A stretch of 55,682 bases of DNA from a virus (taxonomy: Duplodnaviria; Caudoviricetes), in IMG/VR virus record IMGVR_UViG_3300036850_000029, positions 1-55,682 of that record. One strand, written 5' to 3'. Of this stretch, positions 228 through 55,682 are shown piece after piece. The position numbers and the translations under genes are program-made. The notes beneath the pieces were generated by a model that worked only from the letters and a program-made list of their open reading frames with translations, did no database searches and was not told the DNA's origin. The stretch's first letter is position 1, and each line of letters begins with the position of its first letter.

Positions 228-462
228 GAACAAGTTTATCTCACAACGAAACCACGAAACTGGAGAGATAGAGCAGATTGAAACGTTTGAGCTATGCTGC
301 CCTAGCTGTTTAAGACCAATTCGATGCATCGTGGACAGGGACTCTCCGCTTCATAGCTGGAAGGAAGAAGCTGAGTATTACCGAGACTTTTCTCACCAGC
401 TTTCCAAGCGACTGGCCTTTTCAGAGATGTTACTGAGGACAAAATTTAAGGGATTCCAATGA
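226..462 (+). CDS. Hypothetical protein with CxxC
   Basis: ORF continuing the operon from the 55260-55670 gene; CPSC motif. Confidence 0.6.
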   Translation: MNKFISQRNHETGEIEQIETFELCCPSCLRPIRCIVDRDSPLHSWKEEAEYYRDFSHQLSKRLAFSEMLLRTKFKGFQ

Positions 463-629
463 CCCCTGAACAAGAGAAGCAATACGCGGAGGTGTTTGAG
501 AAGGTGCAACAGAAGATAATGGAAACGCCTTGGATGCCACCGCTTCCTAAGTATCCGCCGCCCGGAGGCTGGATACAATTCGTCAATCCGCCTGAACCAC
601 CGAAAGAGGAAGGATCGCTTTGTGAGTGA
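459..629 (+). CDS. Small Pro-rich hypothetical protein (56 aa)
   Basis: Read by hand (MTPEQEKQY...); ATGA overlap with upstream stop, fills the gap. Confidence 0.55.
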   Translation: MTPEQEKQYAEVFEKVQQKIMETPWMPPLPKYPPPGGWIQFVNPPEPPKEEGSLCE

Positions 630-1587
630 CTTTGTAATCAAGGATGCAAGCCGACAAGGCGTTAAGCCGTTAATCGGCCTTTATTCAGAATCCGGCTGCG
701 GCAAGACCTATTCCGCGCTCTTGCTCGCCCGTGGGATTGTCGGGCCTTCTGGCAAGATCGTTCAGATCGACACCGAAGCAGGCCGTGGCGCTCTATATGC
801 CGACGTGATTCCAGGTGGCTACAAGACTCTTGAGATGAGCGAACCGTTCTCGCCCGCTCGCTACATCGCCGCTATTCAAGCCGCTGAACAGTCAGGAGCC
901 AAGATCGTCGTCATAGACTCAGCATCGCACGAATGGGAGGGTTTGGGAGGCGTGTTGGACATGGCTGCCGAAAGCGAGGCAAGGAGCGGTAAGGCTGGGC
1001 TTCACAACTGGAAGATTTGCAAAATGGAGCATTCAAAGATGATGCTCAAGCTGCTGCAATCACCATTGCCAATGATCGTTTGTTTGAGGGCAAAGTATAA
1101 GACTCGGCAGACAAAAGAAAACGGAAAAACGGTGATCGTGAAGGACGAGAACACGAGTCCCATACAGGATGAATCGTTCATCTTTGAGATGACAGCGCAC
1201 GCTGAGATTTTACAGGACCATTCCATTCGACTTACCAAGTGTTCGCATCCGGCGCTACGTTCCTGTTTCCCAGAGAAAGGGCCACTCACTGAGAAACACG
1301 GGGAAGCGATTGCAGCTTGGTGCAACGGTGGATCGAAGCCACAGGCTGCTGCGAAGGAACCTTCCGCAGCAGCCCAAGCCACCGAGAAGACACGCGCATG
1401 GGCGCTCGATCAATTGAAGGCTTACGATCCGGCGTTGTTGCAATCGTATTTCGAGCAAGTGGGATGGATATTGCCAACGGTCGAGACGGTGAACGAATGG
1501 CCTTTGTCAAAAGTCCCCACCAGCAAAGCTGCGATCACAGAGTTGATGGGTAAGATCGAACAATTCAGAGAAACAGGGAGCGTATGA
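622..1587 (+). CDS. AAA_24/Sak4-like ssDNA-annealing ATPase
   Basis: Walker A SESGCGKT, Walker B IVVIDS; adjacent to exonuclease. Confidence 0.8.
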   Translation: MSDFVIKDASRQGVKPLIGLYSESGCGKTYSALLLARGIVGPSGKIVQIDTEAGRGALYADVIPGGYKTLEMSEPFSPARYIAAIQAAEQSGAKIVVIDSASHEWEGLGGVLDMAAESEARSGKAGLHNWKICKMEHSKMMLKLLQSPLPMIVCLRAKYKTRQTKENGKTVIVKDENTSPIQDESFIFEMTAHAEILQDHSIRLTKCSHPALRSCFPEKGPLTEKHGEAIAAWCNGGSKPQAAAKEPSAAAQATEKTRAWALDQLKAYDPALLQSYFEQVGWILPTVETVNEWPLSKVPTSKAAITELMGKIEQFRETGSV

Positions 1588-2537
1588 CTGAACTCAAGAA
1601 CCCGTTCACGAACGCGAAGGTGATCGGCGCGAACACGGACCCTGATGCGTATCATCGTCCCAACGCCAAGCGCGGCGATCCTCAACTGTCCATGTCTCGA
1701 AGCGATCTGTGCGAGTTTGCTCGTAATCCGATTCGCTGGAGAAATGGCTATCGCTCTGAGGAAACCGATTCGACCTCGTGGGGTGGCCTGATTGATTCGT
1801 TGTTGCTCGAACCCGCCGACCGATTCGCCAAACGCTACGCCATCACGCCGCGCACCTACCCGGCACCGAAGACCCACGCGAAGGTCAAGTCCGGCGAGAT
1901 CAAGGAAGGCGATCCGCTCGATTGGACCGGGAACGCGACGTACTGCGCGAACTGGAAGGCTGCACAGAGCGGCAAGGAATTCGTCAAAGAGGACGATTAC
2001 GAAAGGGCTAAAACGGCTCGTGAAACTGTCTTCGAGCATGAATCTGTGGAAGACGTTTTGTTCGACGCGGATCTTCAAGTCATGGTCGTCGCCGAATACC
2101 ACGACAAAGACACCGGAATCCTTGTTCCCGTCAAGGGACTGATCGACATCGTGCCATCACTATCTGACACAGCGACAGGCAAGATGTTGATCGACTTCAA
2201 GACCTGCACCAATGCCGCAATGCACGTTTGGGAAAAGTCCTGCTTCACCTACGGGTATCACGTTCAAGCCGCGATGTATCTCGACCTTTACACGGCTGCC
2301 ACTGGCGACGATCGAAACACGTTCGCTCACATCATCCAGGAATCGTTCGAGCCGTTCCATGTCGAGAAGCGCATTCTATCGCAGGAATTCGTTGAGCTTG
2401 GACGCCACCAGTATATCACCGCGCTCAAGCAATACTGTCAGTGCCTCAAGACGGGCGAGTGGCCCGGTTATCCGGCGAGGACTGTGATTAACGGTTGGGG
2501 GCTTACCGAACCGGCTGCGTGGATGCTTGGCGTATGA
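1584..2537 (+). CDS. RecE/ExoVIII-like PD-(D/E)XK exonuclease
   Basis: KGLID...LIDFKT...YGYHVQAAMY motifs. Confidence 0.85.
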   Translation: MTELKNPFTNAKVIGANTDPDAYHRPNAKRGDPQLSMSRSDLCEFARNPIRWRNGYRSEETDSTSWGGLIDSLLLEPADRFAKRYAITPRTYPAPKTHAKVKSGEIKEGDPLDWTGNATYCANWKAAQSGKEFVKEDDYERAKTARETVFEHESVEDVLFDADLQVMVVAEYHDKDTGILVPVKGLIDIVPSLSDTATGKMLIDFKTCTNAAMHVWEKSCFTYGYHVQAAMYLDLYTAATGDDRNTFAHIIQESFEPFHVEKRILSQEFVELGRHQYITALKQYCQCLKTGEWPGYPARTVINGWGLTEPAAWMLGV

Positions 2538-2833
2538 CCCCTATCCAGACCGTCAAGAAGGTTGTCTGCAAGAGATACGGCGTGACTGATGCGCAGTTGT
2601 GCTGGAAGACGCGAGGGCCGAAAGAATGGTCGTGGCCGCGACAGGTTGCCATGTGGATTTGCGTGAGACAGGAACTTGGCAGCCACGAAGAAATCGCCAG
2701 TTCGTTCAACAGAATATGGAACGACACGGTGTATGCCTACAACAAGGTTCAGTCCGACGTGATGAACTACCCGTTCCTCAGAAAAGAAGTCGATGACGTG
2801 CTGAATTTGGCAATCAACGAAATGGAATTATGA
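2534..2833 (+). CDS. Stand-alone DnaA domain IV-like HTH protein
   Basis: VCKRYGVT..L..KTR...PRQVAMW...EIASSFNR pattern of the DnaA C-terminal domain. Confidence 0.7.
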   Translation: MTPIQTVKKVVCKRYGVTDAQLCWKTRGPKEWSWPRQVAMWICVRQELGSHEEIASSFNRIWNDTVYAYNKVQSDVMNYPFLRKEVDDVLNLAINEMEL

Positions 2834-3102
2834 TACCAGCGAAAGATTTTGCGGAACATATTTTAGGGCTTTGTTCGGCTGGAAACATGAGCGATTTGTT
2901 GCTTCCAGAACTCACTGTTTTAGTGCAGCGGATTCAACAGGACGCCCTTGATAAAAACGGCGCGATGACAAAATGCTCCGTCCAAAGACTGGAAGCGTGG
3001 ATGAAGGAAATAACAGACGTTCTGTGTTACCAACCAGACATCCCAATGGATCACAAGACGTGCATAGTTAATGCGCTTAAACTATTCCAAAACGAGATAT
3101 GA
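2830..3102 (+). CDS. Hypothetical protein, paralog of next gene
   Basis: Coupled ORF; shared N-terminal pattern. Confidence 0.65.
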   Translation: MIPAKDFAEHILGLCSAGNMSDLLLPELTVLVQRIQQDALDKNGAMTKCSVQRLEAWMKEITDVLCYQPDIPMDHKTCIVNALKLFQNEI

Positions 3103-3458
3103 AACCTGCATCTGAATGGACCGATCATATATCTGGCTTGATAGATTGCTTTATTCCGACACACATGGTGGGTATCTATAACGAGGAACTTGCGAACATC
3201 GTTCGCCGTATTCAAGAGGACGCGCTGAACACCGAAGCTGCGAATCACACGAGTATGATTCGTTGCTGCAATCACACAGCGTTGCTCGATTGGGCGGCTG
3301 GTATTTGCGAAGGCATAGTCTCCGTGCAGGTCGGAAGTTCTGTTACTTTGCATCAGGCCCAAGAATGGTTGCGGTCTTACCATTACGAAAAGGATCGTTA
3401 CGTGGTTGTTACGCAAAAAGGTTACACACATGAAACCAAGACGATGGAGATCAAATAG
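3099..3458 (+). CDS. Hypothetical protein, paralog of previous gene
   Basis: Coupled ORF; shared N-terminal pattern. Confidence 0.65.
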   Translation: MKPASEWTDHISGLIDCFIPTHMVGIYNEELANIVRRIQEDALNTEAANHTSMIRCCNHTALLDWAAGICEGIVSVQVGSSVTLHQAQEWLRSYHYEKDRYVVVTQKGYTHETKTMEIK

Positions 3459-3702
3459 ACGAAAACCGCCGCGTCCTGCGTGGTACGATATACGCGATTT
3501 ACGCACTGGCGAGATTTCTTTTGCAGTTTGGATGCGTAACTCGTTCTGGATTCCAGAAAAAACAGGAATGTACAGCTACCTCATCACTGGCCTTTCCGAT
3601 TATCATTGGCGCGGCCCAATTCGTGGGATCTCGGCAGACGACAGGAAGAACTATCCGTTTTTGAAACCCAAACCAACATTCATCGTGAAGTTGGGAATGT
3701 GA
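3430..3702 (+). CDS. Hypothetical protein
   Basis: ORF in tightly packed operon. Confidence 0.55.
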   Translation: MKPRRWRSNRRKPPRPAWYDIRDLRTGEISFAVWMRNSFWIPEKTGMYSYLITGLSDYHWRGPIRGISADDRKNYPFLKPKPTFIVKLGM

Positions 3703-3706
3703 CGCT

Positions 3707-3892
3707 ATGAAGATCAAAAGCGCAGGAGAAAACGCAGACCACCGAGAGTGCGTTGTATATTACATAGTGTTCGATAGCGTAGGGCAGATTCCAATCGCCA
3801 TGTTCCTTGAACAGGAAGACGCCATTAATTGGGTGAACAAGCAACAACCAAACTGCTGGATCGACGCGTTCGCTTTGAACGTGAAAGTGTGA
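3707..3892 (+). CDS. Hypothetical protein
   Basis: ORF in operon. Confidence 0.55.
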   Translation: MKIKSAGENADHRECVVYYIVFDSVGQIPIAMFLEQEDAINWVNKQQPNCWIDAFALNVKV

Positions 3893-3895
3893 CCT

Positions 3896-4069
3896 ATGTA
3901 TTTCGCGATGATCATGTGGAAGGACAGAGAAGTCGGCCCTGTCACGCCCGAAAACGGAGATGGCGCGAAGCTTTGGGCCACTCGACAAGAGGCAGAGAAA
4001 GCTATCAAAGAAATGCCGCTATCAAAGTCCAAAGAAATCCGAATCTTCGACTTGGACAACTGCGAATGA
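3896..4069 (+). CDS. Hypothetical protein (57 aa)
   Basis: Read by hand (MYFAMIMWKD...); stop overlaps next ATG. Confidence 0.55.
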   Translation: MYFAMIMWKDREVGPVTPENGDGAKLWATRQEAEKAIKEMPLSKSKEIRIFDLDNCE

Positions 4070-4323
4070 TCGACGTGCCACATATTGCAAAGAACGCGGA
4101 CGGGTTCCCGATGGAAGTTCCTTGTTGGGATACCGTCAAAGAGTCTAGAAGCCAGTTCAAAGCGTTACTCTGGTGCTCGCGTGGTCACGTTTGTACGATC
4201 TGTGGTCATGAACACACGATTTCAGATGACGGAACGGTTTCTCCGTCGTGCGTCTGCCCTAGAGAAGGTTGCACGTTTCACGAATTTGTAAGGCTCGTTG
4301 GGTGGGAGAATCGAAATGAATAA
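4066..4323 (+). CDS. Cys/His-rich probable Zn-binding protein
   Basis: CSRGH...HTI..DGTVSPS..C..GC.FH pattern. Confidence 0.6.
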   Translation: MIDVPHIAKNADGFPMEVPCWDTVKESRSQFKALLWCSRGHVCTICGHEHTISDDGTVSPSCVCPREGCTFHEFVRLVGWENRNE

Positions 4324-4522
4324 TCGAGTCTGTATTGTTTGCGGTGCCAGGGTGACGAACATGAACCCAAAGGCAAATACATGCTCAAGTCGATGCACGC
4401 GCAAACGCGATGGTAAGCCCGATCTGGAAATCATATTCAATCACTGTTTGGTCTGCCAAAGTCCGATTGAGGATAATGCAACACATTGCAATTCCTGTGG
4501 GGCAAATGATTTTGAACAATGA
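4316..4522 (+). CDS. Zinc-ribbon protein
   Basis: Four CxxC/CxxxC pairs. Confidence 0.6.
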   Translation: MNNRVCIVCGARVTNMNPKANTCSSRCTRKRDGKPDLEIIFNHCLVCQSPIEDNATHCNSCGANDFEQ

Positions 4523-4704
4523 AAATTAAATTTGAACCTCGCGACACCTGGGTGGGTATCTTTTGGGATCGAGCCGGGCGCGTCACGACACTGGAAACAG
4601 ACAGACAGTATTATCGAGTGTATGTCTGCATCGTGCCATGTCTCCCGATAATCTTCACGGTGTCTCGAAACATCCCAAAACACCGAAGATATGAAAACTG
4701 GTAG
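4519..4704 (+). CDS. Hypothetical protein
   Basis: Coupled ORF. Confidence 0.55.
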   Translation: MKIKFEPRDTWVGIFWDRAGRVTTLETDRQYYRVYVCIVPCLPIIFTVSRNIPKHRRYENW

Positions 4705-4794
4705 GAGGAATGAAATCTCCGATCATGCACACGATAATTTGGTTGTAACCCAACTCGAATCTGTTAGCGTCTGATCTACTGTTACTGTTTGTAG

Positions 4795-4954
4795 GCTGCC
4801 AAGCCGCTGGACACGGCTATAATAAAAAACACTCATGCGAGTTAATCAAATTCCCAAAGCACGACTGGAAGAGGGGTTTTCGATGCGCCGCCCGGCGTCG
4901 TCGGCTTTTTCCCTGTCCAATCCGGTCGTGCCTTGGGGCTTTGATTATCCATGA
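4795..4954 (+). promoter_or_regulatory. Structured leader with 39-codon uORF (4835-4954) coupled to the initiator gene
   Basis: Stem 4844-4869/4921-4946; uORF TGA overlaps ATG 4951. Confidence 0.55.
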
Positions 4955-5727
4955 AACTCTACAGAATCCGAGACTGGCAGGAGTTGTACGAGAACAACCG
5001 ATCACGCACTGTTAAGGATCTTTCGTGGGTGGCGATTCCAAATCGGCACGACGGCGAGAACTACACCATGATTATGAGCCACAAACGAGGCTCAGAAATC
5101 TTCTCCGCGTTCATCCTCATGGTCGAAGTAGCCTCCAAATGCAGGCCCAGGGGAACCCTCATCCGAGACAACGGAAAACCCCATAACCCGATCAGTCTAT
5201 CACTCAAATGCAGGTGCCCGGCATCTTGGTTTGAAATCGCCATCGAATATCTGTCTGAGAACACAGATTGGCTTGAATTTGAGGACATTGCATCAGGGTG
5301 TCAGGAGCCTGTCAGCGCCCTGTCAGCGTCCTGTCAGGCAGGTGACGAAGAAGGGAAGGGAATGGAAAGGAAAGAATTGAATGGAAAGAATGGAACGTAT
5401 CCGCCCGAAAGCCGCGTCGCACTTTACTTCCTCAATGAGCAATCAGGACGCAACTTCAGAGAGACGGCTGAGAACCTTGGGTTCATAACAGCAAGGCTTA
5501 AAGAGGATGGGGTGGACATCGAAGGGGTTAAGAAGATGATTGTTCGTCAATGTTCCATTTGGAAAGGGACGGCACAGGCCGAATATCTACGTCCGCAGAC
5601 GCTCTTTAACGCCACCAAATTCGATGCCTACTACGCAGCCAAGGATGTTCCCGTTCAAACCTCGTTACCGATCCAGAAAACTGAATCCAAACAAATCCAG
5701 GAAACCATCAACGTTCCAACCTTATGA
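4951..5727 (+). CDS. Phage replication initiator (lambda O-like organisation, conserved phage C-terminal domain)
   Basis: C-terminal LNEQSGRNFR...ARLKE...YLRPQTLF..TKFDAY; internal iterons; upstream of DnaC-like gene. Confidence 0.8.
   Translation: MKLYRIRDWQELYENNRSRTVKDLSWVAIPNRHDGENYTMIMSHKRGSEIFSAFILMVEVASKCRPRGTLIRDNGKPHNPISLSLKCRCPASWFEIAIEYLSENTDWLEFEDIASGCQEPVSALSASCQAGDEEGKGMERKELNGKNGTYPPESRVALYFLNEQSGRNFRETAENLGFITARLKEDGVDIEGVKKMIVRQCSIWKGTAQAEYLRPQTLFNATKFDAYYAAKDVPVQTSLPIQKTESKQIQETINVPTL
5299..5395 (+). repeat. Putative origin: 4x TGTCAG iterons plus purine tract
   Basis: TGTCAG at 5299, 5310, 5321, 5332 (11-bp period), then an A/G-rich tract. Confidence 0.7.
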
Positions 5728-6440
5728 ATGAAATCGTTACCCCAAGCGAAGTCCTTGATCCGTTCCTCGCGAAGATGAAGGCAATCGAAGATTCCATGAC
5801 GCCTGAACAAAGGGCCGCTCGCGAGGCTCGATATGAGGAGTCCAAACGGCGTGATTATGAAATGAAGGTGAACCAGTTCAGGTACGATTGGGGCGCTCCT
5901 AAGCGGCACGTTGAAACTGCCACGGTCAAAGAAGGGCCGTGGGGTGAGAAATACAGATCCATCGCCGCAATGCTGGGCAGCGGGTTCATGATCGCCCTGA
6001 TTGGTGGCCGTGGCAGCGGGAAAACCCAAATGGCTGTGCAATTGATGAAGCACGCAACCGCCAAGCTCACTTCAGCCAAGTTCATCACCGCCGTTCAGTT
6101 CTTCATGGAAATCAAAGAAACCTACAAACGCGACTGCGATAGCGCCGAGAACGACATTCTCGAAAAGTTCTCACGCCCGTCACTGCTCGTCATCGACGAA
6201 ATCGGCAAGCGCGGCGGGTCCGACTGGGAAAACAACCTTCTCTTTGAACTTCTGAACCGACGTTACAACGACATGAAAGACACCATCATGATCGACAACC
6301 GCTCAAAAGCTGACTTCATCGAAACCATAGGGCCATCAATCGCCAGCCGTATGTCCGAAAACGGCGGTATCATCGAGTGCAACTGGCAATCCTTCCGTAA
6401 CCCCGAAGAATCAAAGAAAACCCCGCAAATCCATTCCTGA
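5724..6440 (+). CDS. DnaC/IstB-like helicase loader ATPase
   Basis: GGRGSGKT, LLVIDEIG, LLNRRY, IASRM. Confidence 0.88.
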   Translation: MNEIVTPSEVLDPFLAKMKAIEDSMTPEQRAAREARYEESKRRDYEMKVNQFRYDWGAPKRHVETATVKEGPWGEKYRSIAAMLGSGFMIALIGGRGSGKTQMAVQLMKHATAKLTSAKFITAVQFFMEIKETYKRDCDSAENDILEKFSRPSLLVIDEIGKRGGSDWENNLLFELLNRRYNDMKDTIMIDNRSKADFIETIGPSIASRMSENGGIIECNWQSFRNPEESKKTPQIHS

Positions 6441-6445
6441 GTCGA

Positions 6446-6916
6446 TTACGGCCCATTCCTACGCCTCGCCGCCAACCGATCAAACGTCCCCTCATCCCCA
6501 CGCTCCATGGCCTTCACCGCCGCCGCCTCACCGTTCAGCGGCTTCCCCCGCTTCCTCAATCGCTCTTTCCTCTTCGCGTCCCGATTATATGCCCTCCTGG
6601 CTTCCTCGTCCCTGATCGACCGATAATGCTGGTAGTTCGTGATAATCCAACCCCAGTCCCGATGGCTGTCCAAAACCATCAACCGCCTTCCCTCGTGCGC
6701 GTGTGACCGGCTTCGTGGATCTGGCTTCATCAACTCAATCAAACAAGCCTTCACCTTCGGCAACGGTAAATTGATCCTCCGCGCTATCGCTTCCGGCGTC
6801 ATGTCCACCACCCCGTCCACGTCCGCCAGCTTCAGCATGTCCTCAAAAAAATGGCGCACCTCGTAATTCTCGGCAATGCTGGAATCGAAGATTTGCGCGA
6901 ACACTTTCACGAACAT
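6446..6916 (-). CDS. Second initiator-like winged-helix protein (N-terminal domain only)
   Basis: MFVKVF.QIFDSSI...ADVDGVV...PDPRSRS..HEGRRL...GW.I.NY..YR pattern of phage replisome-organiser N-termini. Confidence 0.6.
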   Translation of the reverse strand: MFVKVFAQIFDSSIAENYEVRHFFEDMLKLADVDGVVDMTPEAIARRINLPLPKVKACLIELMKPDPRSRSHAHEGRRLMVLDSHRDWGWIITNYQHYRSIRDEEARRAYNRDAKRKERLRKRGKPLNGEAAAVKAMERGDEGTFDRLAARRRNGP

Positions 6917-6924
6917 TCTCCAAT

Positions 6925-7010
6925 GTTGACAGCCACTTCATCCATTTGTCAATGACAAGTTTGACAGTCAGCAATGTCAGCCCATGCAGAAGGAGAAGAA
7001 GAAGGCGAAA
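6925..7010. repeat. TGACA/TGTCA cluster incl. palindrome TTGTCA-A-TGACAA, followed by GAAG-rich tract
   Basis: Five TGACA/TGTCA words within ~55 bp; palindrome 6946-6958. Confidence 0.65.
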
Positions 7011-7355
7011 AAAACGAACTCCAAAATTCCAGATTTCTTCAGAGAGGCGTATATCGTAGCACCCAGGTATTCGTGCGGGCCTACCGGGTGCACCCCGTGG
7101 GGACGGTCCAGGAAAAAAGGGGGGTCCAAGGCCATTGATGCGCACAATTCACAATTATATTCAATTCATAACGTTGTGGTTACAATGACTTACACAACTT
7201 GTGCTTTAGTGAACGTTAACGCAAATCGGGATTCGGATCGGAAACACCACAAGACGCCCCATGGCGAGCCGGGATGAAGATCCGCCACTGGATGGTGGTT
7301 TGGGCTTGAAATGTGGCTTCTGGGGCCTATCTTGGCGCAAAGAATGGCACTCCTG

Positions 7356-7877
7356 ATGGAAGATCAAACGACAGTTGCGCCTCGTGGTTGGGATATGGCG
7401 ATTGATCCAGCGATTTGGGCTAAGGTCAGAGAGAGATACGTGAAAGGCGATAGACTTACTGTACTTTCGGACGAGTTTGGGTTGAAATACGGGACGGTAT
7501 CGAAGAAGGCGCAACAGGAGGGTTGGCGGAAACTACGCGAGGAATACGAGGAGAACAGCCGGAAAGCGGTAACAACGCCAGAGATTGAATTGCGCAATCG
7601 AGCAACGATTGAGAGGGCCTTGGGGCCGCAAGACGATTACATTGAGCAGGTATCGAACTATCGGGCGTCTGCTGAGGTATTGAGACGGGAGTTTGAAGCG
7701 ACGCAAGAGGAGTTGAAAGATCCACCGGCGGATGTGAAAGATCGAGTAGCGTTGAGACGAACATTGATTCAGTTGCACGAGCGGATTCAAGAGGCTCTAT
7801 CCATCCCATCTGTGAAGCCTGTTGAACTTCGGCAATCTGGCAGTGAGAAGCGAACACCGGCGATTCCTCTTGGCTGA
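7356..7877 (+). CDS. terS: Terminase small subunit-like HTH protein
   Basis: W.KVRERYVKG..L..LS.EFG..YGTV.KKAQQEGW...R..Y HTH plus coiled coil; start uncertain (7344/7356). Confidence 0.6.
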   Translation: MEDQTTVAPRGWDMAIDPAIWAKVRERYVKGDRLTVLSDEFGLKYGTVSKKAQQEGWRKLREEYEENSRKAVTTPEIELRNRATIERALGPQDDYIEQVSNYRASAEVLRREFEATQEELKDPPADVKDRVALRRTLIQLHERIQEALSIPSVKPVELRQSGSEKRTPAIPLG

Positions 7878-8004
7878 TTCGAGCATACTTATTTGTTATG
7901 CTCGGATGATGGACTTCGTTTGTAATCTTCAATGATGACGGCCTTATGCTGAGTATTAGTCTCACGAATGGGCTGTTTTTTGGACACACTGACAAAATAA
8001 GTGA

Positions 8005-8033
8005 TTGCGTTGCGTTCTGTGTCGTGTATGGTT
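8005..8033 (+). promoter_or_regulatory. Sigma70-like promoter of rightward early array
   Basis: TTGCGT-N17-TATGGT. Confidence 0.45.
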
Positions 8034-8079
8034 GCATCACTTCGAGGATGAACTTCGGGGTGAACAACGGGAACAAATT

Positions 8080-8277
8080 ATGAGAACAAAAACAGAATGG
8101 AAGAAGATTCCGAGCGTGACCAGGCCGGGGAGATATTTCTACCGGTCGGGCAAGGTGACAGTTCGACAGTCGTTCATGACTGGGGATTGGAGTTATCAAC
8201 GGGAAGGGTCAATTGAGGTGGGAGGTTTTAAGACTCCCGATGAAGCTAAGGCTGCGGCGGATTTGATGGCGCAGTAA
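8080..8277 (+). CDS. Hypothetical early protein
   Basis: ORF after promoter. Confidence 0.6.
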   Translation: MRTKTEWKKIPSVTRPGRYFYRSGKVTVRQSFMTGDWSYQREGSIEVGGFKTPDEAKAAADLMAQ

Positions 8278-8304
8278 TTTGGGCAGTGAAACAAGAACAA
8301 GGAA

Positions 8305-8661
8305 ATGGAAACTATGAGAACGACAAAAGACGACCGGCGGTTTTACGATGAGCAGCTAAAAATGGCTCGTCAACTATTGGCTCGGAAGGGGTTGGATGGG
8401 CTGGAAAATCCGCACGCAATGACGGGTCGGAAATGTGGCTGCGGGGATTGTTTTTGTTGCGCGGCGCTTGCTGTATTCAACGCGGCGCATGGCAGCCCGA
8501 AAATCTACTGGCGGGACCTTGACGCAAGCATTGATGTGATTGCGCGTGGAGCAGAATACCGAACAACAGGGGGAAGTCTGGTGTTTTGGATGGGGCATGA
8601 GGCAACGGAGGCAATGAACTATCTGGACGGGCGTACGGCAGAAAGGAGCGCAGCACGATGA
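8305..8661 (+). CDS. Hypothetical early protein (CGCGDCFCC)
   Basis: ORF with AAGGA RBS. Confidence 0.6.
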   Translation: METMRTTKDDRRFYDEQLKMARQLLARKGLDGLENPHAMTGRKCGCGDCFCCAALAVFNAAHGSPKIYWRDLDASIDVIARGAEYRTTGGSLVFWMGHEATEAMNYLDGRTAERSAAR

Positions 8662-8879
8662 AAAATCCTAACTGTGACGGAGAGCATTGTATTAAACAGC
8701 GCGGAGAGGTTCGCGTGCTGCCGACTGGGGGAGATTCAAGCGCGATACTGTGCCGCGAATGTTATTGGCGCGAAATGATGTTCCGGCACGTGCGCAACGA
8801 GAAGTTGAGCGACGATTGCAAATTCTCCATCCCAACTTGGGAATCGTTGCGGGTTTACGGCGCAGAGCAACCAGCCTGA
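8658..8879 (+). CDS. Hypothetical early protein
   Basis: AAGGAG RBS, coupled. Confidence 0.6.
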   Translation: MKNPNCDGEHCIKQRGEVRVLPTGGDSSAILCRECYWREMMFRHVRNEKLSDDCKFSIPTWESLRVYGAEQPA

Positions 8880-8926
8880 TCCCCTGACCCACGCTCCCGT
8901 GACAGGGGAGCCCAGTCAGCGGATTA
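8878..8926 (+). other. Intergenic interrupted hairpin
   Basis: ATCC-C-CTGAC...CTCCC/GGGAG...GTCAG-C-GGAT nested pairing. Confidence 0.5.
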
Positions 8927-8951
8927 ACTGCTGAAGCGAAAGGACGAAATT

Positions 8952-9116
8952 ATGAGACTGACAAAAAGGTACTTGGAGACGTGTGTAAAGTTGGGTTTTC
9001 GTGCAGACACTAAGTTTGTGACGTTGCGCGGGAATGTGATTGGTTTTACGTGTGGGAAACCCGACGAATTGAGAAGGCTGGCGCGGGCCGCGATTGCGAA
9101 AGCGAGGGGAGCATGA
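8952..9116 (+). CDS. Hypothetical protein (54 aa)
   Basis: Read by hand (MRLTKRYLE...); AAGGA RBS. Confidence 0.6.
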   Translation: MRLTKRYLETCVKLGFRADTKFVTLRGNVIGFTCGKPDELRRLARAAIAKARGA

Positions 9117-9322
9117 GCGAGCAGCGACATTACAGGCCGATTTTGGCACTCGGCTATCAGAGCGGCGACGGAACGATCCAAGTCACGGATGTTTTGTGTA
9201 ATAATTTTCCTGACATGACAAACGCAGAAATGGCGGCTCTATCGTGGAATCTCACCATTTGGGCGGGTGACTTGCGCAGGCCAGCGCGGGCAGAACTGGC
9301 GAGGAAGGAGAGCAAGGAATGA
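9113..9322 (+). CDS. Hypothetical protein
   Basis: Coupled ORF (MSEQRHY...). Confidence 0.55.
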   Translation: MSEQRHYRPILALGYQSGDGTIQVTDVLCNNFPDMTNAEMAALSWNLTIWAGDLRRPARAELARKESKE

Positions 9323-9531
9323 ATCGAGGAATCATCATGGACGCGGCCACGGGCGAACCTGTCACCGAATCAGAACGTTCAAGACTCTGGATCATAGCCG
9401 CAATCTCGTATTTGGAATCAGCCAAGGCGTGGTCTGAAACCAGTCGCCGGAATCGTAAAAGCAAAGTCGATTACTATTTGAGTAGTGCCAGCGATGCCAT
9501 TGCGCTTGCGAGGAAGGAGCCGGGGGCATGA
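9319..9531 (+). CDS. Hypothetical protein
   Basis: Coupled ORF. Confidence 0.55.
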   Translation: MNRGIIMDAATGEPVTESERSRLWIIAAISYLESAKAWSETSRRNRKSKVDYYLSSASDAIALARKEPGA

Positions 9532-9866
9532 AAGCATATCCACAAATTGAAATCGTGAATTGGCAGGACAAAGGTTTTTTCGGGATCGTGTGGTTGGATG
9601 AAAAGCACAACCGAACAATTCCACACGCAAACCTGAAATGTCCCGAGGAACTGTACGCAACCGAGGCCGAAGCAAATGCGGCATGTCAGCTTTACGTTGA
9701 AAGGATTGTTGTGTTGAACAATAACACGGCTTTGACTCCGTGTTCTGCTGGAATGGCCCTTGATGCTGCTGCGAACATAATCGCAATGGTTGGCACAACG
9801 GGGATTGAACATGCACACAAGCAGGCGGAGAAGTGGCTTAGACTCTATTATCCTGCACGCTTATGA
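9528..9866 (+). CDS. Hypothetical protein
   Basis: Coupled ORF, AAGGAG RBS. Confidence 0.6.
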   Translation: MKAYPQIEIVNWQDKGFFGIVWLDEKHNRTIPHANLKCPEELYATEAEANAACQLYVERIVVLNNNTALTPCSAGMALDAAANIIAMVGTTGIEHAHKQAEKWLRLYYPARL

Positions 9867-10066
9867 GGTTCATCGAGTTCAAAAAGAATGTCCAACACGG
9901 TGACGATCTTCCGGTTCAACTAATCATAAAGGGCGGCTTGTTGGTGGACAAGGAAACGGGTGAATTCGTTAGATTCGGTCTGCCAGATGGAACGGAAGTC
10001 AACGTAATGCCGCACGAGCATTTGAAGCGTCGTCTTGACGAAGCTTATCTATGGCGAAAACAGTGA
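9863..10066 (+). CDS. Hypothetical protein
   Basis: Coupled ORF. Confidence 0.55.
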   Translation: MRFIEFKKNVQHGDDLPVQLIIKGGLLVDKETGEFVRFGLPDGTEVNVMPHEHLKRRLDEAYLWRKQ

Positions 10067-10078
10067 AAGGAAAACAAC

Positions 10079-10201
10079 ATGAACACCTACAAGCAGACAG
10101 TCCGTGATTGGATGGAGCAATACGCGCAGACAAAAATGAACCTGCGTCAACTGAGGCGATTGTTTCGAGCGTGGATGCTGCGGAACTCTACAGGCTCTTA
10201 A
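10079..10201 (+). CDS. Small hypothetical protein (40 aa)
   Basis: AAGGA RBS; read by hand (MNTYKQT...). Confidence 0.45.
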   Translation: MNTYKQTVRDWMEQYAQTKMNLRQLRRLFRAWMLRNSTGS

Positions 10202-10211
10202 AGGAGGCGGA

Positions 10212-10433
10212 ATGAAAGACGACATGAGACAATACCGGGAGCATCTAAAGGTGAAACATTCAGATGGCGGAGCGAGATGGAAAACACTCGATGAAGTGTG
10301 TGTTGAATCGCCGCTGATGAGGGAATTGCGAGCCGAACATTCCAAGCTGGATCGGCTGTTGATATGGCAGGTAATTGGGGTGACAGGCTGGCTGGCGTTC
10401 CTGGCGGTGATTGTGGCAACGGCAATGAGATGA
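10212..10433 (+). CDS. Small protein with C-terminal TM helix
   Basis: AAGGAGG RBS; hydrophobic C-terminus. Confidence 0.6.
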   Translation: MKDDMRQYREHLKVKHSDGGARWKTLDEVCVESPLMRELRAEHSKLDRLLIWQVIGVTGWLAFLAVIVATAMR

Positions 10434-10441
10434 CTAGCTTT

Positions 10442-10510
10442 ATCCCCGCCGCTTCCGCGTTTCCCCACACGCGGCTGGCCCTCATAATGCCAGTCCTTAG
10501 CGGCGGGGGT
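10442..10510 (+). ncRNA. Candidate three-way-junction antisense RNA A
   Basis: 12-bp closing stem, two hairpins (loops UUCCCCAC, CCUCAUAAU), UCCUU joiner. Confidence 0.6.
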
Positions 10511-10604
10511 TTCGATTTAAGCCCTCGCAATTCTCCCCCATGTAAGGACAGCGGACGGTCAATCAAAGTGGCTTAAACGGAGTCCTGAGACGATTTCTGA
10601 GGCT

Positions 10605-10832
10605 TCAGGTAGGCTTGCCCGGGCTTTGATAGTGTTTCACAGCCCATTCAGCGGTCAACATGACGTTCCACCAATCCTCCATCGTGATACCTGTAATCAA
10701 GACGTGTTCACGCTGGTCAATGACGAGGACTTGAGCGCGGGCGGTGGCGAGAATCCTGCCAAAATCGAGCGCGGACAGAGAGGGGACTTCGGGTGGAACG
10801 GGCAATGGGTTGGATGGGGGTTGGTCGATCAT
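10605..10832 (-). CDS. Hypothetical protein
   Basis: ORF with own TTGACC..TACTTA promoter-like element. Confidence 0.5.
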   Translation of the reverse strand: MIDQPPSNPLPVPPEVPSLSALDFGRILATARAQVLVIDQREHVLITGITMEDWWNVMLTAEWAVKHYQSPGKPT

Positions 10833-10892
10833 GGCTACCTATAAGTAGGAGAACAGGCTTGTAAGGTCAAGGCGGATGGCCTAGGGTTGGGT

Positions 10893-11495
10893 ATGAGATT
10901 CCTCGTCTGTCTTCTGCTTGTTTTCACGGTTGGATGCACTTCTGGTTTGTTCAACAAACGATCTGAAAAACAAGCGATGGATTCGGCTGAGAAGCTGAAC
11001 AGTCAGTCACAGGCGAACCTTGAGCGAGTGATTGAAGGGCAGAAGGAACAGCCAAGGCCGAACATCTCACCGCAGATAGACATCAAAGGATCGAGCAACC
11101 AAGTTGACATCAAGATCCAAGCTCCTCTGCCACCTGAACCAGTTCAACCGTATCGAGAGTTCACTGGGTACGGAACGAGGACGAATCAGAAGGTAACGAC
11201 ATCGCAAAGTTGGTGGTCGGATTACAAGAACACACTGCCGCTTGGAATCTCGATGCTGGCGATTGCCATTGGTGGTTACGCAATCATTGTGCTGTTGAGG
11301 AAGGCTCGACAATCGAGCGCGGCGTTCAATTCAATGGCTGGTATGGTGGACGGTCAAATGGCACATTGGCTGGATGAATTGAACGATCAAATGGCAAAGG
11401 AAAAAGACTCAGACGCACAGGCTAGGATGGCTGTGGACAGGGCGGCCATGGAAAAGTTCCGAGGGAAGTTAGCTGAAATGAAGCCAAAGAAATAG
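10893..11495 (+). CDS. Lipoprotein with internal TM helix (u-spanin-like topology)
   Basis: Lipobox FTVG-C; TM LGISMLAIAIGGYAIIVLL. Confidence 0.55.
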   Translation: MRFLVCLLLVFTVGCTSGLFNKRSEKQAMDSAEKLNSQSQANLERVIEGQKEQPRPNISPQIDIKGSSNQVDIKIQAPLPPEPVQPYREFTGYGTRTNQKVTTSQSWWSDYKNTLPLGISMLAIAIGGYAIIVLLRKARQSSAAFNSMAGMVDGQMAHWLDELNDQMAKEKDSDAQARMAVDRAAMEKFRGKLAEMKPKK

Positions 11496-11522
11496 GCGCG
11501 ACAATCGTTAGACTGCCGCGCC
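11488..11522 (-). terminator. Intrinsic terminator (possibly bidirectional)
   Basis: GGCGCGGCAGTC-TAAC-GATTGTCGCGCC followed by TATTTCTTT on minus strand. Confidence 0.65.
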
Positions 11523-11672
11523 TTGAGCACTTCCACGAGAACCATACCAAGCCTAGCCATTGCTAGCCTCTGCGGATCAGAGCTTGCCACGCCATACCAA
11601 TGCCCCAAGCTATCGGAATTAAGTCGGTTTTCAAGCCTTGATTCCGTCCTTCCATCAGTTACGATTCCAGCC

Positions 11673-11822
11673 ATGAGCACATTTCTATTAGGCAGTTTTT
11701 TGATTTTGTTCGGCTTTACACAACTGGTGAACACATCAATCCCCGCATGGGTGATCGGCTTGCTGGCCTTGGCTGCCGGTGTGGCAACGATCATTGGGAA
11801 GTTGTTTCCGCGGTTGAAATGA
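11673..11822 (+). CDS. 49-aa two-TM membrane peptide (holin/toxin-like)
   Basis: Two hydrophobic helices, basic tail; own TTGATT-N17-TACGAT promoter. Confidence 0.6.
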   Translation: MSTFLLGSFLILFGFTQLVNTSIPAWVIGLLALAAGVATIIGKLFPRLK

Positions 11823-11963
11823 TTCGACGATCTTCAGAGCATCCCCTTGTTTCGTAACCCCGTGATCCCCACGGTACCAGTAATCGCCGTGCAAATGCAC
11901 CCAGCGAGCGAGAACCAGTTTTGACAGGTTGATTTCTGGTTCAGTCACGTCGGTATCCTCCAC
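11736..11963 (-). CDS. Hypothetical protein
   Basis: Last ORF of leftward array; convergent overlap with peptide gene. Confidence 0.4.
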   Translation of the reverse strand: MEDTDVTEPEINLSKLVLARWVHLHGDYWYRGDHGVTKQGDALKIVESFQPRKQLPNDRCHTGSQGQQADHPCGD

Positions 11964-12148
11964 AACATCACAACGAATTCCTGAGTCATCTTAAGCTTCT
12001 TCCTGTCCTTCTTCATCTGTTCAGTGATTTGATCGAGCAACAGTCTGGCATGTTCAGACCCCATGCACACAGGATGATCGGTTGCATGGGCACACTTGCC
12101 ATCGGCTGCGACGATCAGAATGTATGGGCGAGCTTGAATTGTTAGCAT
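11945..12148 (-). CDS. Hypothetical protein
   Basis: Packed leftward ORF. Confidence 0.5.
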   Translation of the reverse strand: MLTIQARPYILIVAADGKCAHATDHPVCMGSEHARLLLDQITEQMKKDRKKLKMTQEFVVMLWRIPT

Positions 12149-12737: not shown

Positions 12738-13111
12738 TGTCCCTCCTTCAAGGCGTCGCGCAGCCCGTTCAGCCGTGTGTGGCTGAACGGGCCGCCGCCA
12801 CGCGAGGTTTCGACAAGATCCCTCGCCGCCTGCTCCACGCGCTGCAATCTCTCGATTTCTTTTCGCAGGTAGTCGATCTTTTCAGTCATGTGGGTGGTTG
12901 CGATTCCAACGAAGTCATGGAACGATTCACTGTCCGCTAATAGCTTCTTGAACTCGTCGGCGGGGACGATGGCGACTTCTTTGAACACGATGTTGCCGCT
13001 CGCGTTGAATAACGATCCTCGGTCTGCGTGAACAGTGATGCGCGGCTGACCAGTGCTATCGTCGCCCGCTTCGACGCACTTCCCGAACACGGCGGTTTTG
13101 GTGTTGTTCAT
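12734..13111 (-). CDS. Hypothetical protein
   Basis: Coupled ORF. Confidence 0.6.
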   Translation of the reverse strand: MNNTKTAVFGKCVEAGDDSTGQPRITVHADRGSLFNASGNIVFKEVAIVPADEFKKLLADSESFHDFVGIATTHMTEKIDYLRKEIERLQRVEQAARDLVETSRGGGPFSHTRLNGLRDALKEGQ

Positions 13112-16717: not shown

Positions 16718-17110
16718 TCACCTAGAGTATTGATTATACGACGCGCTCAGATTGTAAATGTTAGCCGTCCTTTGAGCGTGCGAATCCGGCTTCCACTTCC
16801 TCCGTTTCGCCCCCGTGAATCCGTGGTGCCAGCAGAGCGCAACATTGGCGGCAGAATCGGCGACACCGGCCTTTCGCATCAGGGTGAGTTTGATGTCGAT
16901 CAGCCGGTGCGCCGGATCGCCCGTGCCTGATAAGCCGAGCCGGGCAAGCTCTCTGAAAGCGATCTTGGAGATTTGATGACGGCCAACTTCACCGGCTTTC
17001 CCGACGGCCTTTGGGTTGTCGTTCGATTCCACCAAAGCCAGCGCGTGCAGGAACCGCTCTCGGTCTATCGGTCCGCACAGCGCAAGGATTAGGAGGATGG
17101 TCGCGTTCAT
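16718..17110 (-). CDS. Lytic transglycosylase (SLT-like) with N-terminal hydrophobic segment
   Basis: ALALVES.DNP.AVG..GEVG..QI...WHHG; N-terminus MNATILLILALC. Confidence 0.75.
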   Translation of the reverse strand: MNATILLILALCGPIDRERFLHALALVESNDNPKAVGKAGEVGRHQISKIAFRELARLGLSGTGDPAHRLIDIKLTLMRKAGVADSAANVALCWHHGFTGAKRRKWKPDSHAQRTANIYNLSASYNQYSR

Positions 17111-17346
17111 TTCGTGAATTCTTTCGGTGGCATTCCGTATCCAGCCTCTGTCGCCAGCCATTTTAGGCGGTCAGGATCTTGACTAAGTCCAGCACCTGCT
17201 ACGCTTCGGCACCATTTACCCCACGTCTCGCCATCTCGAAAATTCATCACATCCGAGATTGATATGAGACGCAGCGCGGAGAGCCTGCACCATTCCAAAC
17301 CGGGAGGAACTTCGGCGATTGTTTGCTTTGTCATTTCAGCTTTCAT
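17107..17346 (-). CDS. Hypothetical protein
   Basis: Coupled ORF. Confidence 0.5.
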   Translation of the reverse strand: MKAEMTKQTIAEVPPGLEWCRLSALRLISISDVMNFRDGETWGKWCRSVAGAGLSQDPDRLKWLATEAGYGMPPKEFTK

Positions 17347-17354
17347 TTCAAAAT

Positions 17355-17426
17355 TGGCGGTGGCGAGCGCAAGGATACGCCCATAGGTGTAACGCTGTTA
17401 TGAGGCAGCGTCAGCACTTGCCACCA
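17355..17426 (-). ncRNA. Candidate three-way-junction antisense RNA B
   Basis: ~12-bp closing stem with 3' GCCA, hairpin loop CCUCAUAA, UCCUU joiner. Confidence 0.55.
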
Positions 17427-17605
17427 TTCGTTTTGTGCGTCTTTCGATTGGAATAATGTTTGGAAACGTTTCCGGTTCTTAAAGCCAGCCAAAGGATCTC
17501 GTTTACCAGTTCATCCGCAGTAAACGATTGCACTTTTGCCTTTTTGCAGCGATTCAATTCGTCGTTCACAAGAGCGCGTATGGCAGGATGAAGTTTTATG
17601 TTCAC
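17411..17605 (-). CDS. Small DNA-binding (RHH/Arc-like) protein
   Basis: GTG start overlapping upstream TGA; VNIKLHP..R....ELVNEIL pattern. Confidence 0.5.
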   Translation of the reverse strand: MNIKLHPAIRALVNDELNRCKKAKVQSFTADELVNEILWLALRTGNVSKHYSNRKTHKTNGGKC

Positions 17606-30755: not shown

Positions 30756-31160
30756 TCATTCCTCGATTATAGGTTCGAGAGCAGCCAGCACCCCGGCAGG
30801 AATGGCGTTCGTCGGACACGAATCAACTCGTTGACCGTCTGGCGTAGTCACCTTATCCGTTCCATCACCAACACGCAACTCTGCCAGCTTCAGCTTGTGC
30901 GGCTCAAACTCAGTCGTGCCGTCGAGCAACGCACCCCATTCCTCCAGATACGCCCTGCCCTCGTCTGAGTCCTGAGCCAGTTGTTTGCTGCCATTGGCGT
31001 GCTTGGCGATCAACTTCTGTTGCGCCGTCTTCAGATCACCGGCTGCCGTACGCACCTTGCGCAGATTCTTGGCGAGTTTCCACGTTGTCACGCCATCAAA
31101 TTTGAACGTGTCCAGAGAGTTCAAGGCTTTGTCCAGTGCGAGCAGGTCCAGGTTTGTCAT
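30756..31160 (-). CDS. Hypothetical helical protein (tail-associated chaperone-like)
   Basis: WKLAKN...LIAKHA...ALEPII pattern typical of phage tail regions. Confidence 0.55.
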   Translation of the reverse strand: MTNLDLLALDKALNSLDTFKFDGVTTWKLAKNLRKVRTAAGDLKTAQQKLIAKHANGSKQLAQDSDEGRAYLEEWGALLDGTTEFEPHKLKLAELRVGDGTDKVTTPDGQRVDSCPTNAIPAGVLAALEPIIEE

Positions 31161-31255
31161 AGGTTATGGGTTTGTGTTCTCGAATCGTTCAGACAATAGG
31201 CATGGTAGGGCAGAAGGTCAATCCTCCCACACGTTGTAGTATTATCCCCTGCATG

Positions 31256-36551: not shown

Positions 36552-36938
36552 TTACGCGACTTTCACCGTACGGCGAGTGTACTTACGTTTCACTCTTGGT
36601 TGTTCGATTGCCACCGGGGGGATTGATCGTGCAGTCGGAACTGGCGGGATTGGATTAAGTTTGGGCCTCGTCACCACCAAATGCGGAATCTCACCCAACA
36701 CATTCCCGTTCTTCGTATCCACAACTTCCCTGATCGTTGGCGCTCGAAACAGCTTATCAATATACTGCCCCACATAAGGCAACACTTCCTTGGCAACGAT
36801 ATATTCGATCCCGTCAAACTTGCCTCGCTGATAATCAGCGAAAATCTTTCCTTGATGCTGGACGACAGCCTTGGCGTCCATGACAGAGTTGATACGCAAT
36901 TCGAGATAACGTTGAGCAGGTTTTGTTGGGGCAGGCAT
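36552..36938 (-). CDS. Hypothetical protein with basic tail
   Basis: Packed ORF. Confidence 0.6.
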   Translation of the reverse strand: MPAPTKPAQRYLELRINSVMDAKAVVQHQGKIFADYQRGKFDGIEYIVAKEVLPYVGQYIDKLFRAPTIREVVDTKNGNVLGEIPHLVVTRPKLNPIPPVPTARSIPPVAIEQPRVKRKYTRRTVKVA

Positions 36939-37157
36939 AGGTTATGGGTTTGTGGGTTGTTCGCCCGGTTTCAATAATGGAAATGGGAAAAGATTTGGGT
37001 CCATCGGATCTGGGCGGTCATTAATGCTGAAAGTCCCACCATTCTTTTCCACCATCTTTCTGATGTGTTCCAGAACTTCTGGCGGTTTCAAGGGTTCTGG
37101 GAGTTCAGCATTCATGGTTGTCCGAAACCTTGATACGCCATATCTTCCAGTCACGCA

Positions 37158-38957: not shown

Positions 38958-38960
38958 GTC

Positions 38961-39677: not shown

Positions 39678-39682
39678 AGACT

Positions 39683-39874
39683 ATGAAATTCACAATGGCA
39701 GTATTATTTAGCGCACTAGCATTCGTGGCACTGTTTATTTTTGTGATAATCCCATTGATGGATTCATGGAACGCAAGGGCTGACGTAAAGGCGTTTTGCA
39801 CCGTATCTATAGTGCTTTTTCTGGCGTTCATGATGGGACACTTCGGACACAAAAAGTCAGGTAATTGGAAATGA
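39683..39874 (+). CDS. Small two-TM membrane protein
   Basis: Two hydrophobic helices. Confidence 0.55.
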   Translation: MKFTMAVLFSALAFVALFIFVIIPLMDSWNARADVKAFCTVSIVLFLAFMMGHFGHKKSGNWK

Positions 39875-43186: not shown

Positions 43187-43187
43187 T

Positions 43188-44450: not shown

Positions 44451-44453
44451 TGC

Positions 44454-45884: not shown

Positions 45885-45888
45885 TCCC

Positions 45889-55670: not shown

Positions 55671-55682
55671 TTATGGCCGTAT
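55456..55682. repeat. Terminal direct repeat / circular overlap, copy 2
   Basis: Matches 1-227. Confidence 0.97.

Follow-up and report, generated by a model that had tools for sequence, protein, structure and literature searches.

Two predicted three-way-junction RNAs of a soil phage expose a common anti-start-codon loop and an anti-Shine-Dalgarno sequence

The genome of an uncultured soil phage harbors two sense-strand RNAs that are predicted to fold into very stable three-way junctions and that, on otherwise unrelated scaffolds, would hold the same two short sequences single-stranded. One of these sequences is CCUCAUAA, complementary to the start context UUAUGAGG; the other is UCCUU, complementary to AAGGA, the usual Shine-Dalgarno (SD) sequence of the phage. 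The best explanation as a whole, to which we assign a probability of roughly one in three, is that the first of them (element 1) is a terminator whose RNA fragment represses translation starts of the early unit that it closes. To our knowledge, phage antisense regulators acting on ribosome-binding sites are known from a few model phages only (P1 C4, P4 CI, P22 sar and lambda OOP). The arrangement, in which one anti-start-codon loop and one anti-SD strand recur on two unrelated scaffolds, the first of which probably doubles as an operon terminator, is a compact and testable design in a phage with almost no recognizable gene families. If the proposed pairing is true, a terminator-embedded, two-site regulator that mimics translation initiation would be added to the repertoire, and its 8-nt loop would be a simple handle for analogous elements in viral dark matter. 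If the pairing is false, the elements would still illustrate well how branched terminators or stability structures occur in phage operons.

The window, by which we mean the whole stretch of DNA analyzed, corresponds to a single IMG/VR virus record (55,682 bases). Bases 1-227 are 100% identical to bases 55456-55682, forming direct repeats of 227 nt at both ends. This indicates that the record was circularly assembled (or is terminally redundant) and is probably complete, at ~55.4 kb; it is listed as linear and 64% complete despite its identical ends. The only sequencing run with the stretch is a DNA run from a soil metagenome that may be its source; the contig of this run is identical across element 1 and shows one SNP, at 10387. 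Gene map and gene starts were obtained with our own crude codon-usage caller, which gave 85 predicted initiation regions. In this map a plus-strand gene block extends from ~459 to 10433 and includes one minus-strand gene (6446-6910). It is followed by a lone minus-strand gene (10605-10832), a plus-strand block (10887-11495 and beyond), a minus-strand block from 37115 down to 11736, a plus-strand block at 37158-47977 and a minus-strand block at 53986-47974. Family matches were found for very few of the phage's proteins, namely an exonuclease VIII-like protein (1584-2537), a replication-initiator-like protein (4951-5727), a DnaC-like loader (5724-6440), a virion protein of 1491 aa, a PAPS-reductase-like protein, a Lar-like protein and a weak SLT match. 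Integrase, repressor or recombinase families were not recognized in the phage by family searches, and a search of the protein atlas with the DnaC-like protein returned nothing useful on the host taxon. Several TTGACA-like repeats, likely promoters or operators, occur at 6917-6983 between the divergent gene 6446-6910 and the plus-strand unit. They suggest that 6984-10433 is a separate early unit, which spans ~3.5 kb (about 6950 to 10433), comprises 12 genes and is probably ended by element 1. The genes of this 6.9-10.4 kb unit matched no Pfam or PHROG family.

Element 1 (10442-10510, plus strand) was predicted with a minimum free energy (MFE) of -38.4 kcal/mol and a z-score of -4.54, and none of 200 dinucleotide shuffles gave an equally good fold. 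Its closing stem (10442-10453 with 10499-10510; 12 pairs, one of them U-G) encloses hairpin 1 (10455-10474; 6 bp, 8-nt loop) and hairpin 2 (10475-10493; 5 bp, 9-nt loop), the latter being followed by the joiner UCCUU (10494-10498). The loop of hairpin 2, CCUCAUAAU (10480-10488), contains CUCAUAA and is complementary to the start context AUUAUGAGG. The joiner is the single-stranded part of GUCCUUA (10493-10499), which was identified as an anti-SD sequence by fold and complementarity. Within a context of 129 nt, the unpaired probability was 0.98 for the loop motif and 0.83 for UCCUU. The predicted fold is exactly that described in the initial annotation, with a 12-bp closing stem, two hairpins and a TCCTT joiner, and the operon-end position proposed there was likewise recovered, as element 1 starts 8 nt past the UGA of the last plus-strand gene of the unit (10212-10433). 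This gene has a codon score of +6.2 and encodes a protein of 73 aa with a C-terminal hydrophobic helix. Two homologues of the protein were found, one with a single-residue difference and one with 77% identity (P0002), which is encoded on a contig of 835 bp. On the other side, element 1 is bordered by the convergent minus-strand gene 10605-10832, which encodes a protein of 75 aa. The C-terminal 30 residues of the latter match a repeat unit of giant proteins, present in 18 and 14 copies in proteins of 6478 and 5594 aa (E 1.8e-29 and 1.5e-13). A long imperfect hairpin at 10514-10580 adjoins element 1 and presents an apical UAAGGAC (10543-10549) that is complementary to the joiner sequence GUCCUUA. 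Judged by this complementarity, a pseudoknot or kissing contact between the two is possible on read-through transcripts.

Directly 3' of the closing stem lies the U-rich tail UUUCGAUUU (10510-10518, plus strand). Its tail score of 2.82 is reached by 0.97% of all window positions, and the opposite strand scores 0.10. Like intrinsic terminators and 3'UTR-derived sRNAs, element 1 combines a GC-rich basal helix of 12 bp with a U-rich tract just past the last stop codon, at the end of a transcription unit. In contrast to the simple stem-loops of terminators, it is a branched three-way junction of 69 nt, the stem of which encloses two hairpins (43-nt interior), and its internal loops, as well as those of element 2, carry a recurring motif that matches start codons. 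Branched 69-nt hairpins are atypical for intrinsic terminators, and a terminator consensus scan allowing loops of 3-8 nt found nothing in 10000-11200. The long minus-strand block ends in a canonical hairpin terminator (11494-11523), which indicates that the host uses intrinsic termination. Element 1 probably terminates transcription and caps the early unit. Scans for sigma-70-type promoters near both elements found none, with a consensus that may not be that of the host.

The GC-rich helix, a tail in the top 1%, the position 8 nt past a stop codon and the location between convergent genes equally suit the alternative that both elements are terminators, attenuators or mRNA-stability structures only, their common loop and UCCUU being due to coincidence or to neutral descent from a duplicated element. 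In detail, element 1 would end the early unit, the long transcript of the minus strand would be punctuated or stabilized by element 2, and ribosomes that terminate at the nearby UGA-C codons would modulate how the RNAs fold. This alternative is only slightly less probable than the best explanation given above. The atypical branched form of element 1 and the missing proximal U-tract of element 2 argue against it, whereas the location of the upstream gene's stop within element 2 is in its favor. It is further favored by a described precedent, a stop-proximal terminator on which the terminating ribosome has a repressive effect (PMC4824070). Either junction would be partly melted when a ribosome terminates at the neighboring UGA.

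The proposed repression is based on complementarity to translation starts. The best candidate target is gene 8952-9116, where the SD AAGGAC, a 3-nt spacer and AUUAUGAG occupy positions 8940-8956 of the plus strand (AAGGAC-GAA-ATTATGAG, ATG at 8952). Two further genes match the loop only, with exact 8-mers at 8077-8084 (ATTATGAG; gene 8080-8277, ATG 8080) and at 9861-9868 (TTATGAGG; UUAUGAGG; gene 9863-10066, ATG 9863), both on the plus strand. The start of gene 9863-10066 overlaps the stop codon of the preceding gene. The antiparallel anti-AUG and anti-SD complementarity to the ribosome-binding site and start of gene 8952, which the initial annotation had pointed out, is thus present in the sequence, and the additional loop matches that it listed at 8080 and 9863 each overlap the predicted start codon. 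In total, the complement of the loop matches 3 of the 85 predicted initiation regions as an 8-mer and six as a 7-mer. The 8-mer count was equalled by 0.15% of 20000 shuffled loops and by 0.115% of 20000 random 9-mers from the window, the 7-mer count by 0.1% of 20000 shuffled loops. Among 20000 random loops containing CAU, 0.32% equalled the 8-mer count and 1.06% the 7-mer count, and when all 4096 NNNCATNNN loops were enumerated, 15 attained three matches. The excess of loop matches at starts thus corresponds to a P of about 0.001-0.003. That this loop is among the 15 of 4096 CAU loops that best match the starts of this phage speaks against structures that act as terminators only.

All three 8-mer matches (8080, 8952 and 9863) lie within the 12-gene unit that is closed by element 1; the probability that three random genes of the 85 all fall into it is ~0.002 (calculated by hand). 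A two-site match of 8+6 nt occurs in one of the 85 regions, that of gene 8952, and was also reached by 77 of 20000 shuffled versions of the 22-nt segment. AAGGA is the common SD of this phage, present in 18 of the 85 genes and in seven of the ten genes from 8314 to 10212. Genes 8080, 8314 and 8952 have a GAAAYUAUGAGA context and MRT/MRL N-termini in common. The matching starts resemble each other, so the matches are not independent events. The common starts may represent duplicated gene starts or a module-boundary sequence. The regions 8077-8100, 8311-8335 and 8949-8975 have the start context GAAAYTATGAGA in common, and the N-termini of the three proteins read MRTKT, MRTTK and MRLTK. The only long intergenic gap within the early unit (72 nt) is located at 8881-8951, and a stable hairpin without a U-tail (8881-8910) is found there, just 5' of the ribosome site of gene 8952. 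The complement of the hairpin-1 loop showed no excess of near matches, with 12 observed and 14.3 expected.

Predicted duplex energies were unremarkable and give the proposed targets no support. When the 22-nt segment was used as RNAduplex query against the 85 regions, gene 8952 ranked third with -18.4 kcal/mol, and the best target was an unrelated gene with -21.2 kcal/mol. A best target as good as the observed one was found by 18.8% of 500 shuffled queries; the mean over all 85 regions was somewhat low (P 0.036). Duplexes formed by the loop alone are weak (-7 to -10 kcal/mol). Energies of -8.2 kcal/mol (loop) and -9.0 kcal/mol (joiner) were obtained for gene 8952, and the values for gene 9863 were -10.4 and -9.3 kcal/mol. 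In a genome-wide duplex slide, the start-codon sites were outside the ten best for either loop. RNAcofold of the elements against the 85 initiation regions gave values of about 0 for the candidate targets and was dropped because its nested model cannot represent pairing between a loop and a strand. That duplex energies do not favor the proposed targets is a further point for a role in termination or mRNA stability only.

A second junction with the same exposed sequences was found by sliding-window folding of the whole genome. Element 2 (17358-17426, minus strand) has an MFE of -36.6 kcal/mol and a z-score of -4.12, and none of 200 shuffles folded as well. Its 7-bp closing stem encloses hairpin A, with the 8-nt loop CCUCAUAA (17398-17405), and hairpin B, with the loop UCCU(U) (17371-17375); unpaired probabilities are 1.00 for the CCUCAUAA loop and 0.81 for UCCUU. 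Element 2 is located between two same-strand genes within an operon. The UGA of the upstream gene (17413-17411) forms part of the hairpin A stem, and 11 nt separate the 3' end of the element from the ATG (17346) of the following gene. With this position, element 2 is no clean operon-end RNA. It is also a poor terminator on the sense strand, where the tail score is 0.41 and UUUU begins 4 nt past the stem. On the plus strand the tail is U-rich (score 2.74), which reflects the Lys/Asn/Thr codons of the gene on the minus strand, read in antisense.

Elements 1 and 2 have the CCUCAUAA loop and the exposed UCCUU, i.e. only 8+5 bases, in common, and the remainder cannot be aligned. The initial annotation had spoken of two copies of the RNA. 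A near-identical copy does not exist, as a search allowing up to three mismatches gave one match, and what takes its place is the non-alignable junction at 17358-17426 with the same loop motif. Both elements are in the sense orientation of the neighboring genes and present, from 5' to 3', CCUCAUAA, UCCUU and the 3' strand of the closing stem, which is the antiparallel order for SD...AUG; the order of the hairpins differs between them. They are the two most stable multiloop structures of the genome. The stable set consisted of 74 distinct 80-nt windows with an MFE of -30 kcal/mol or lower, which hold 161 loop 8-mers. Nine of these windows contain a multiloop with a closing helix of at least 6 bp, and four of the nine are the two strands of elements 1 and 2. 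Within this set, CCTCATAA is the sole loop 8-mer common to different stable structures. In transcribed sense it occurs in these two loops only, and its third exact occurrence is the antisense of the start of gene 9863. The probability of finding a prespecified 8-mer in another stable loop is ~0.0025 (161/65536). The agnostic expectation for any loop 8-mer in common among stable structures is 0.2, so that a single common 8-mer, taken alone, is not rare.

The two figures bear in opposite directions on a role in termination or stability only. The expectation of 0.2 makes one common loop 8-mer among 161 acceptable as coincidence, whereas the recurrence of a prespecified 8-mer at ~0.0025, accompanied by an exposed UCCUU and located in the one other strong three-way junction, speaks against it. 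If the elements were old duplicates, all but the motifs would have diverged beyond alignment, which argues for selection on the motifs. A second junction that exposes both CCUCAUAA and UCCUU makes a chance motif unlikely. For the coincidence of the exposed pair in both elements, we infer a probability of roughly 1e-4 to 1e-3, obtained by multiplying 161/65536 by the chance of an exposed anti-SD pentamer. The exposed pair has very probably been selected for, as a feature of an RNA class that is specific to this phage and has two members.

In the mechanism that we favor, element 1 would first serve as a branched intrinsic terminator and as a 3'-end protector of the early unit. The stable 3' fragment would then pair in vivo with initiation regions of the same early unit, gene 8952 being bound through both sites and genes 8080 and 9863 through the loop only. 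This pairing would lower translation of the targets and thereby exert a feedback from the end of the operon, working like P1 C4 or P4 CI. That elements 1 and 2 together repress initiation regions of the AAGGA...UUAUGAG class is tentatively suggested as the most economical reading of the common motif. An undescribed class of phage riboregulators that imitates 30S surfaces, i.e. the anticodon loop of the initiator tRNA (CUCAUAA) and the 3' tail of 16S rRNA (UCCUU), is an unlikely extension of this idea. Such RNAs would occlude AAGGA-spacer-UUAUGAG starts, each being released 3' of a translated gene so that a unit tunes its own members.

P1 C4 and P4 CI had been named from the outset as analogues of element 1. 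The analogy holds in logic but not at the level of the RNA family. P4 CI RNA belongs to the Rfam C4 family. Rfam searches of the whole window returned no family at gathering score, and at E up to 10 the sub-windows 9800-11200, 10425-10530 and 17320-17470 matched neither C4 nor tRNA, the only matches being irrelevant snoRNA and viral fragments. The elements are not members of the C4/CI or tRNA families. C4 is described as a processed RNA of ~77 nt with three stem-loops, in which stem P1 closes further stem-loops; the target mRNA is bound through the loops a' and b', of which b' covers its ribosome-binding site (PMC5320573). According to this description of C4 from P1 and P7, both RNAs are structured, ~70-77 nt long and built from a closing stem with further hairpins, and both have single-stranded segments complementary to two short target sites, one of them at the ribosome-binding site. 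C4 and its targets also derive from one operon transcript, as is proposed for element 1. The two differ in that element 1 is located at the 3' end of its unit, downstream of all candidate targets, whereas C4 is encoded upstream of its targets, in an immunity operon of a temperate phage. In addition, the 3' end of element 1 is probably formed by termination and not by processing, one of its pairing sites is a junction strand instead of a loop, and the loop of hairpin 1 has no target above chance.

Terminator structures that double as parts of regulatory RNAs are known from bacteria. The terminator loops of the E. coli sRNAs SdsR, RseX and ArrS drive repression of fepA; they are described as acting on 5'UTR structure, 'likely without base-pairing', in an Hfq- and RNase E-dependent manner (PMC11979758). 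In contrast to these bacterial sRNAs, direct anti-SD and anti-AUG pairing is proposed here, and in a phage.

Instead of pairing with mRNA, the exposed sequences might be recognized by a protein or the translation machinery. The elements would then be mimics of tRNAs or of initiation complexes, with roles as decoys for an enzyme or nuclease that binds anticodon loops, as RNase P-type processing signals or as operators for a phage RNA-binding protein; we consider this quite improbable. CUCAUAA is found in both loops, and we take it to be the anticodon-loop sequence of methionine tRNAs; UCCUU(A) of the elements presumably resembles the 3' tail of 16S rRNA. The architecture fits to some extent, as hairpin 2 of element 1 consists of a 5-bp stem followed by a 5-nt single strand, and element 2 combines a 7-bp closing stem, a 2-nt linker and a hairpin stacked on the 3' strand, followed by G-CCA. 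In its most permissive mitochondrial mode (-mt -ps), ARAGORN labelled element 1 as 'Met (cat)' at 10446-10507 and element 2 with 'tcat'. However, this mode made 114 calls in 55.7 kb and is therefore nearly uninformative, and the labels merely restate the CUCAUAA in the loops. ARAGORN detected no tRNA gene in the window at bacterial and lowered bacterial thresholds and called neither element at default mitochondrial thresholds. The Rfam tRNA model has no match at E<=10, element 1 has neither CCA nor a T-arm, and the UCCUU in both elements is left unexplained unless the whole mimicry idea is adopted. Processing by RNase P has a precedent in C4 RNA, the 5' end of which is cut from a longer transcript by this enzyme (PMC5320573).

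Function might also reside on the opposite strands, where AAGGA ... UUAUGAGG would form a ribosome-binding site and start within loops. The reverse complements would then open small antisense ORFs, serve as decoys for ribosomes or pair each with the sense form of the other element. The fold is equally good on both reverse strands, with SD and AUG single-stranded, and most other CTCAT...TCCTT pairs in the window are the antisense of real gene starts. Candidate antisense ORFs of 95 aa (10485 to 10198, minus strand) and 18 aa (17400-17456, plus strand) are present, the ATG at 10485 being in frame with ORF 10198-10566, and the U-rich plus-strand tail past element 2 (2.74) would suit a transcript of this orientation. 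In spite of these points, a role of the opposite strands is very improbable. The codon scores of the two ORFs are -7.2 (95 aa) and -2.65 (18 aa), in contrast to +6.2 for the sense gene 10212-10433, which has homologues, and the sense strands were therefore taken as functional. Moreover, the 18-aa ORF continues beyond the terminator postulated for the plus strand, neither a gene of that strand nor a promoter-like site was found near 17.3 kb, and the U-richness stems from the Lys/Asn/Thr codons on the minus strand. Ribosome-binding sites that are split or bridged by a hairpin occur in T4 genes 25 and 38. They bear only on the opposite-strand reading, in which an SD and an AUG are held apart by a hairpin, as on the plus strand of element 2; the opposite-strand frames at both elements lack a coding signal.

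The elements are inverted and 6.9 kb apart, and the genes flanked by them are small, accessory and of mixed orientation, including the Lar-like gene and the weak SLT-like gene. A pair of structured DNA sites that bounds an accessory segment of 6.9 kb (10.5-17.4 kb), as module boundaries or recombination sites, could account for this arrangement. It is hardly credible, however, as only 8+5 bases are common to the two sites, no recombinase was recognized and no composition break was found, and as both the RNA-type folding and the exposure of the motifs would be left unexplained.

Relatives of the elements were searched for at the nucleotide and the protein level. Megablast of 7000-12000 against phages gave no match, blastn with a word size of 11 returned only matches with E values of 0.3 or worse for both elements against phages, and an exact 35-nt pattern was found in 0 stretches of viral contigs. 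Short exact hairpin-top patterns occurred at 10+10 loci in viral contigs, none of which had a junction with UCCUU in place; three of these loci fall in an HNH-like coding frame. The proteins 10212-10433 and 9528-9866 had no relatives in viral contigs, and none were found there either when the 73-aa protein was aligned to both of its homologues and the alignment used as query. The same alignment gave one locus in metagenome contigs (L002), which was rejected as an unrelated oxidoreductase, and two loci in genome contigs. One of the latter (L004) matches in a non-coding frame, and the other (L003) was judged spurious from its tblastn match alone, which is identical to that of L002. The 1491-aa virion protein has one distant relative, in a record (G001) with 31% identity. 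CTCATAA is absent from both strands of this record, which is uninformative because of its GC content of 61.6% and its 517 stable windows.

Two further interpretations were examined and rejected. A stimulator of stop-codon read-through was considered, as UGA-C ends both upstream genes, but the spacing differs between the two (8 nt and 0 nt), and only the loop of element 1 contains an in-frame stop. Sites resembling attC, IS200/605 or put were inspected by eye only and showed no defining sequence features.

Some other structured or repeated sequences were observed in the window. The two most stable local folds of the genome lie on the minus strand at 12753-12832 and 16843-16922, with -52.9 and -43.3 kcal/mol per 80 nt; both are within predicted coding regions, and the former has a GC content of 71%. 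Four tandem units of 72 nt (48578-48915) lie within the gene of a 770-aa protein, and seven dispersed units of 51 nt (33859-34929), spaced by ~150-216 nt, within that of a 602-aa protein; both proteins are repeat-domain structural proteins. An identical 19-mer, CACAAACCCATAACCTATG, is present on the minus strand at 31158-31176 and 36936-36954 and ends in the start codons of two genes. Two matches were found in 0 of 100 shuffles, and a related leader precedes a third gene at 43170-43190 on the plus strand. This 19-mer may be a common SD-less leader or a late-gene signal.
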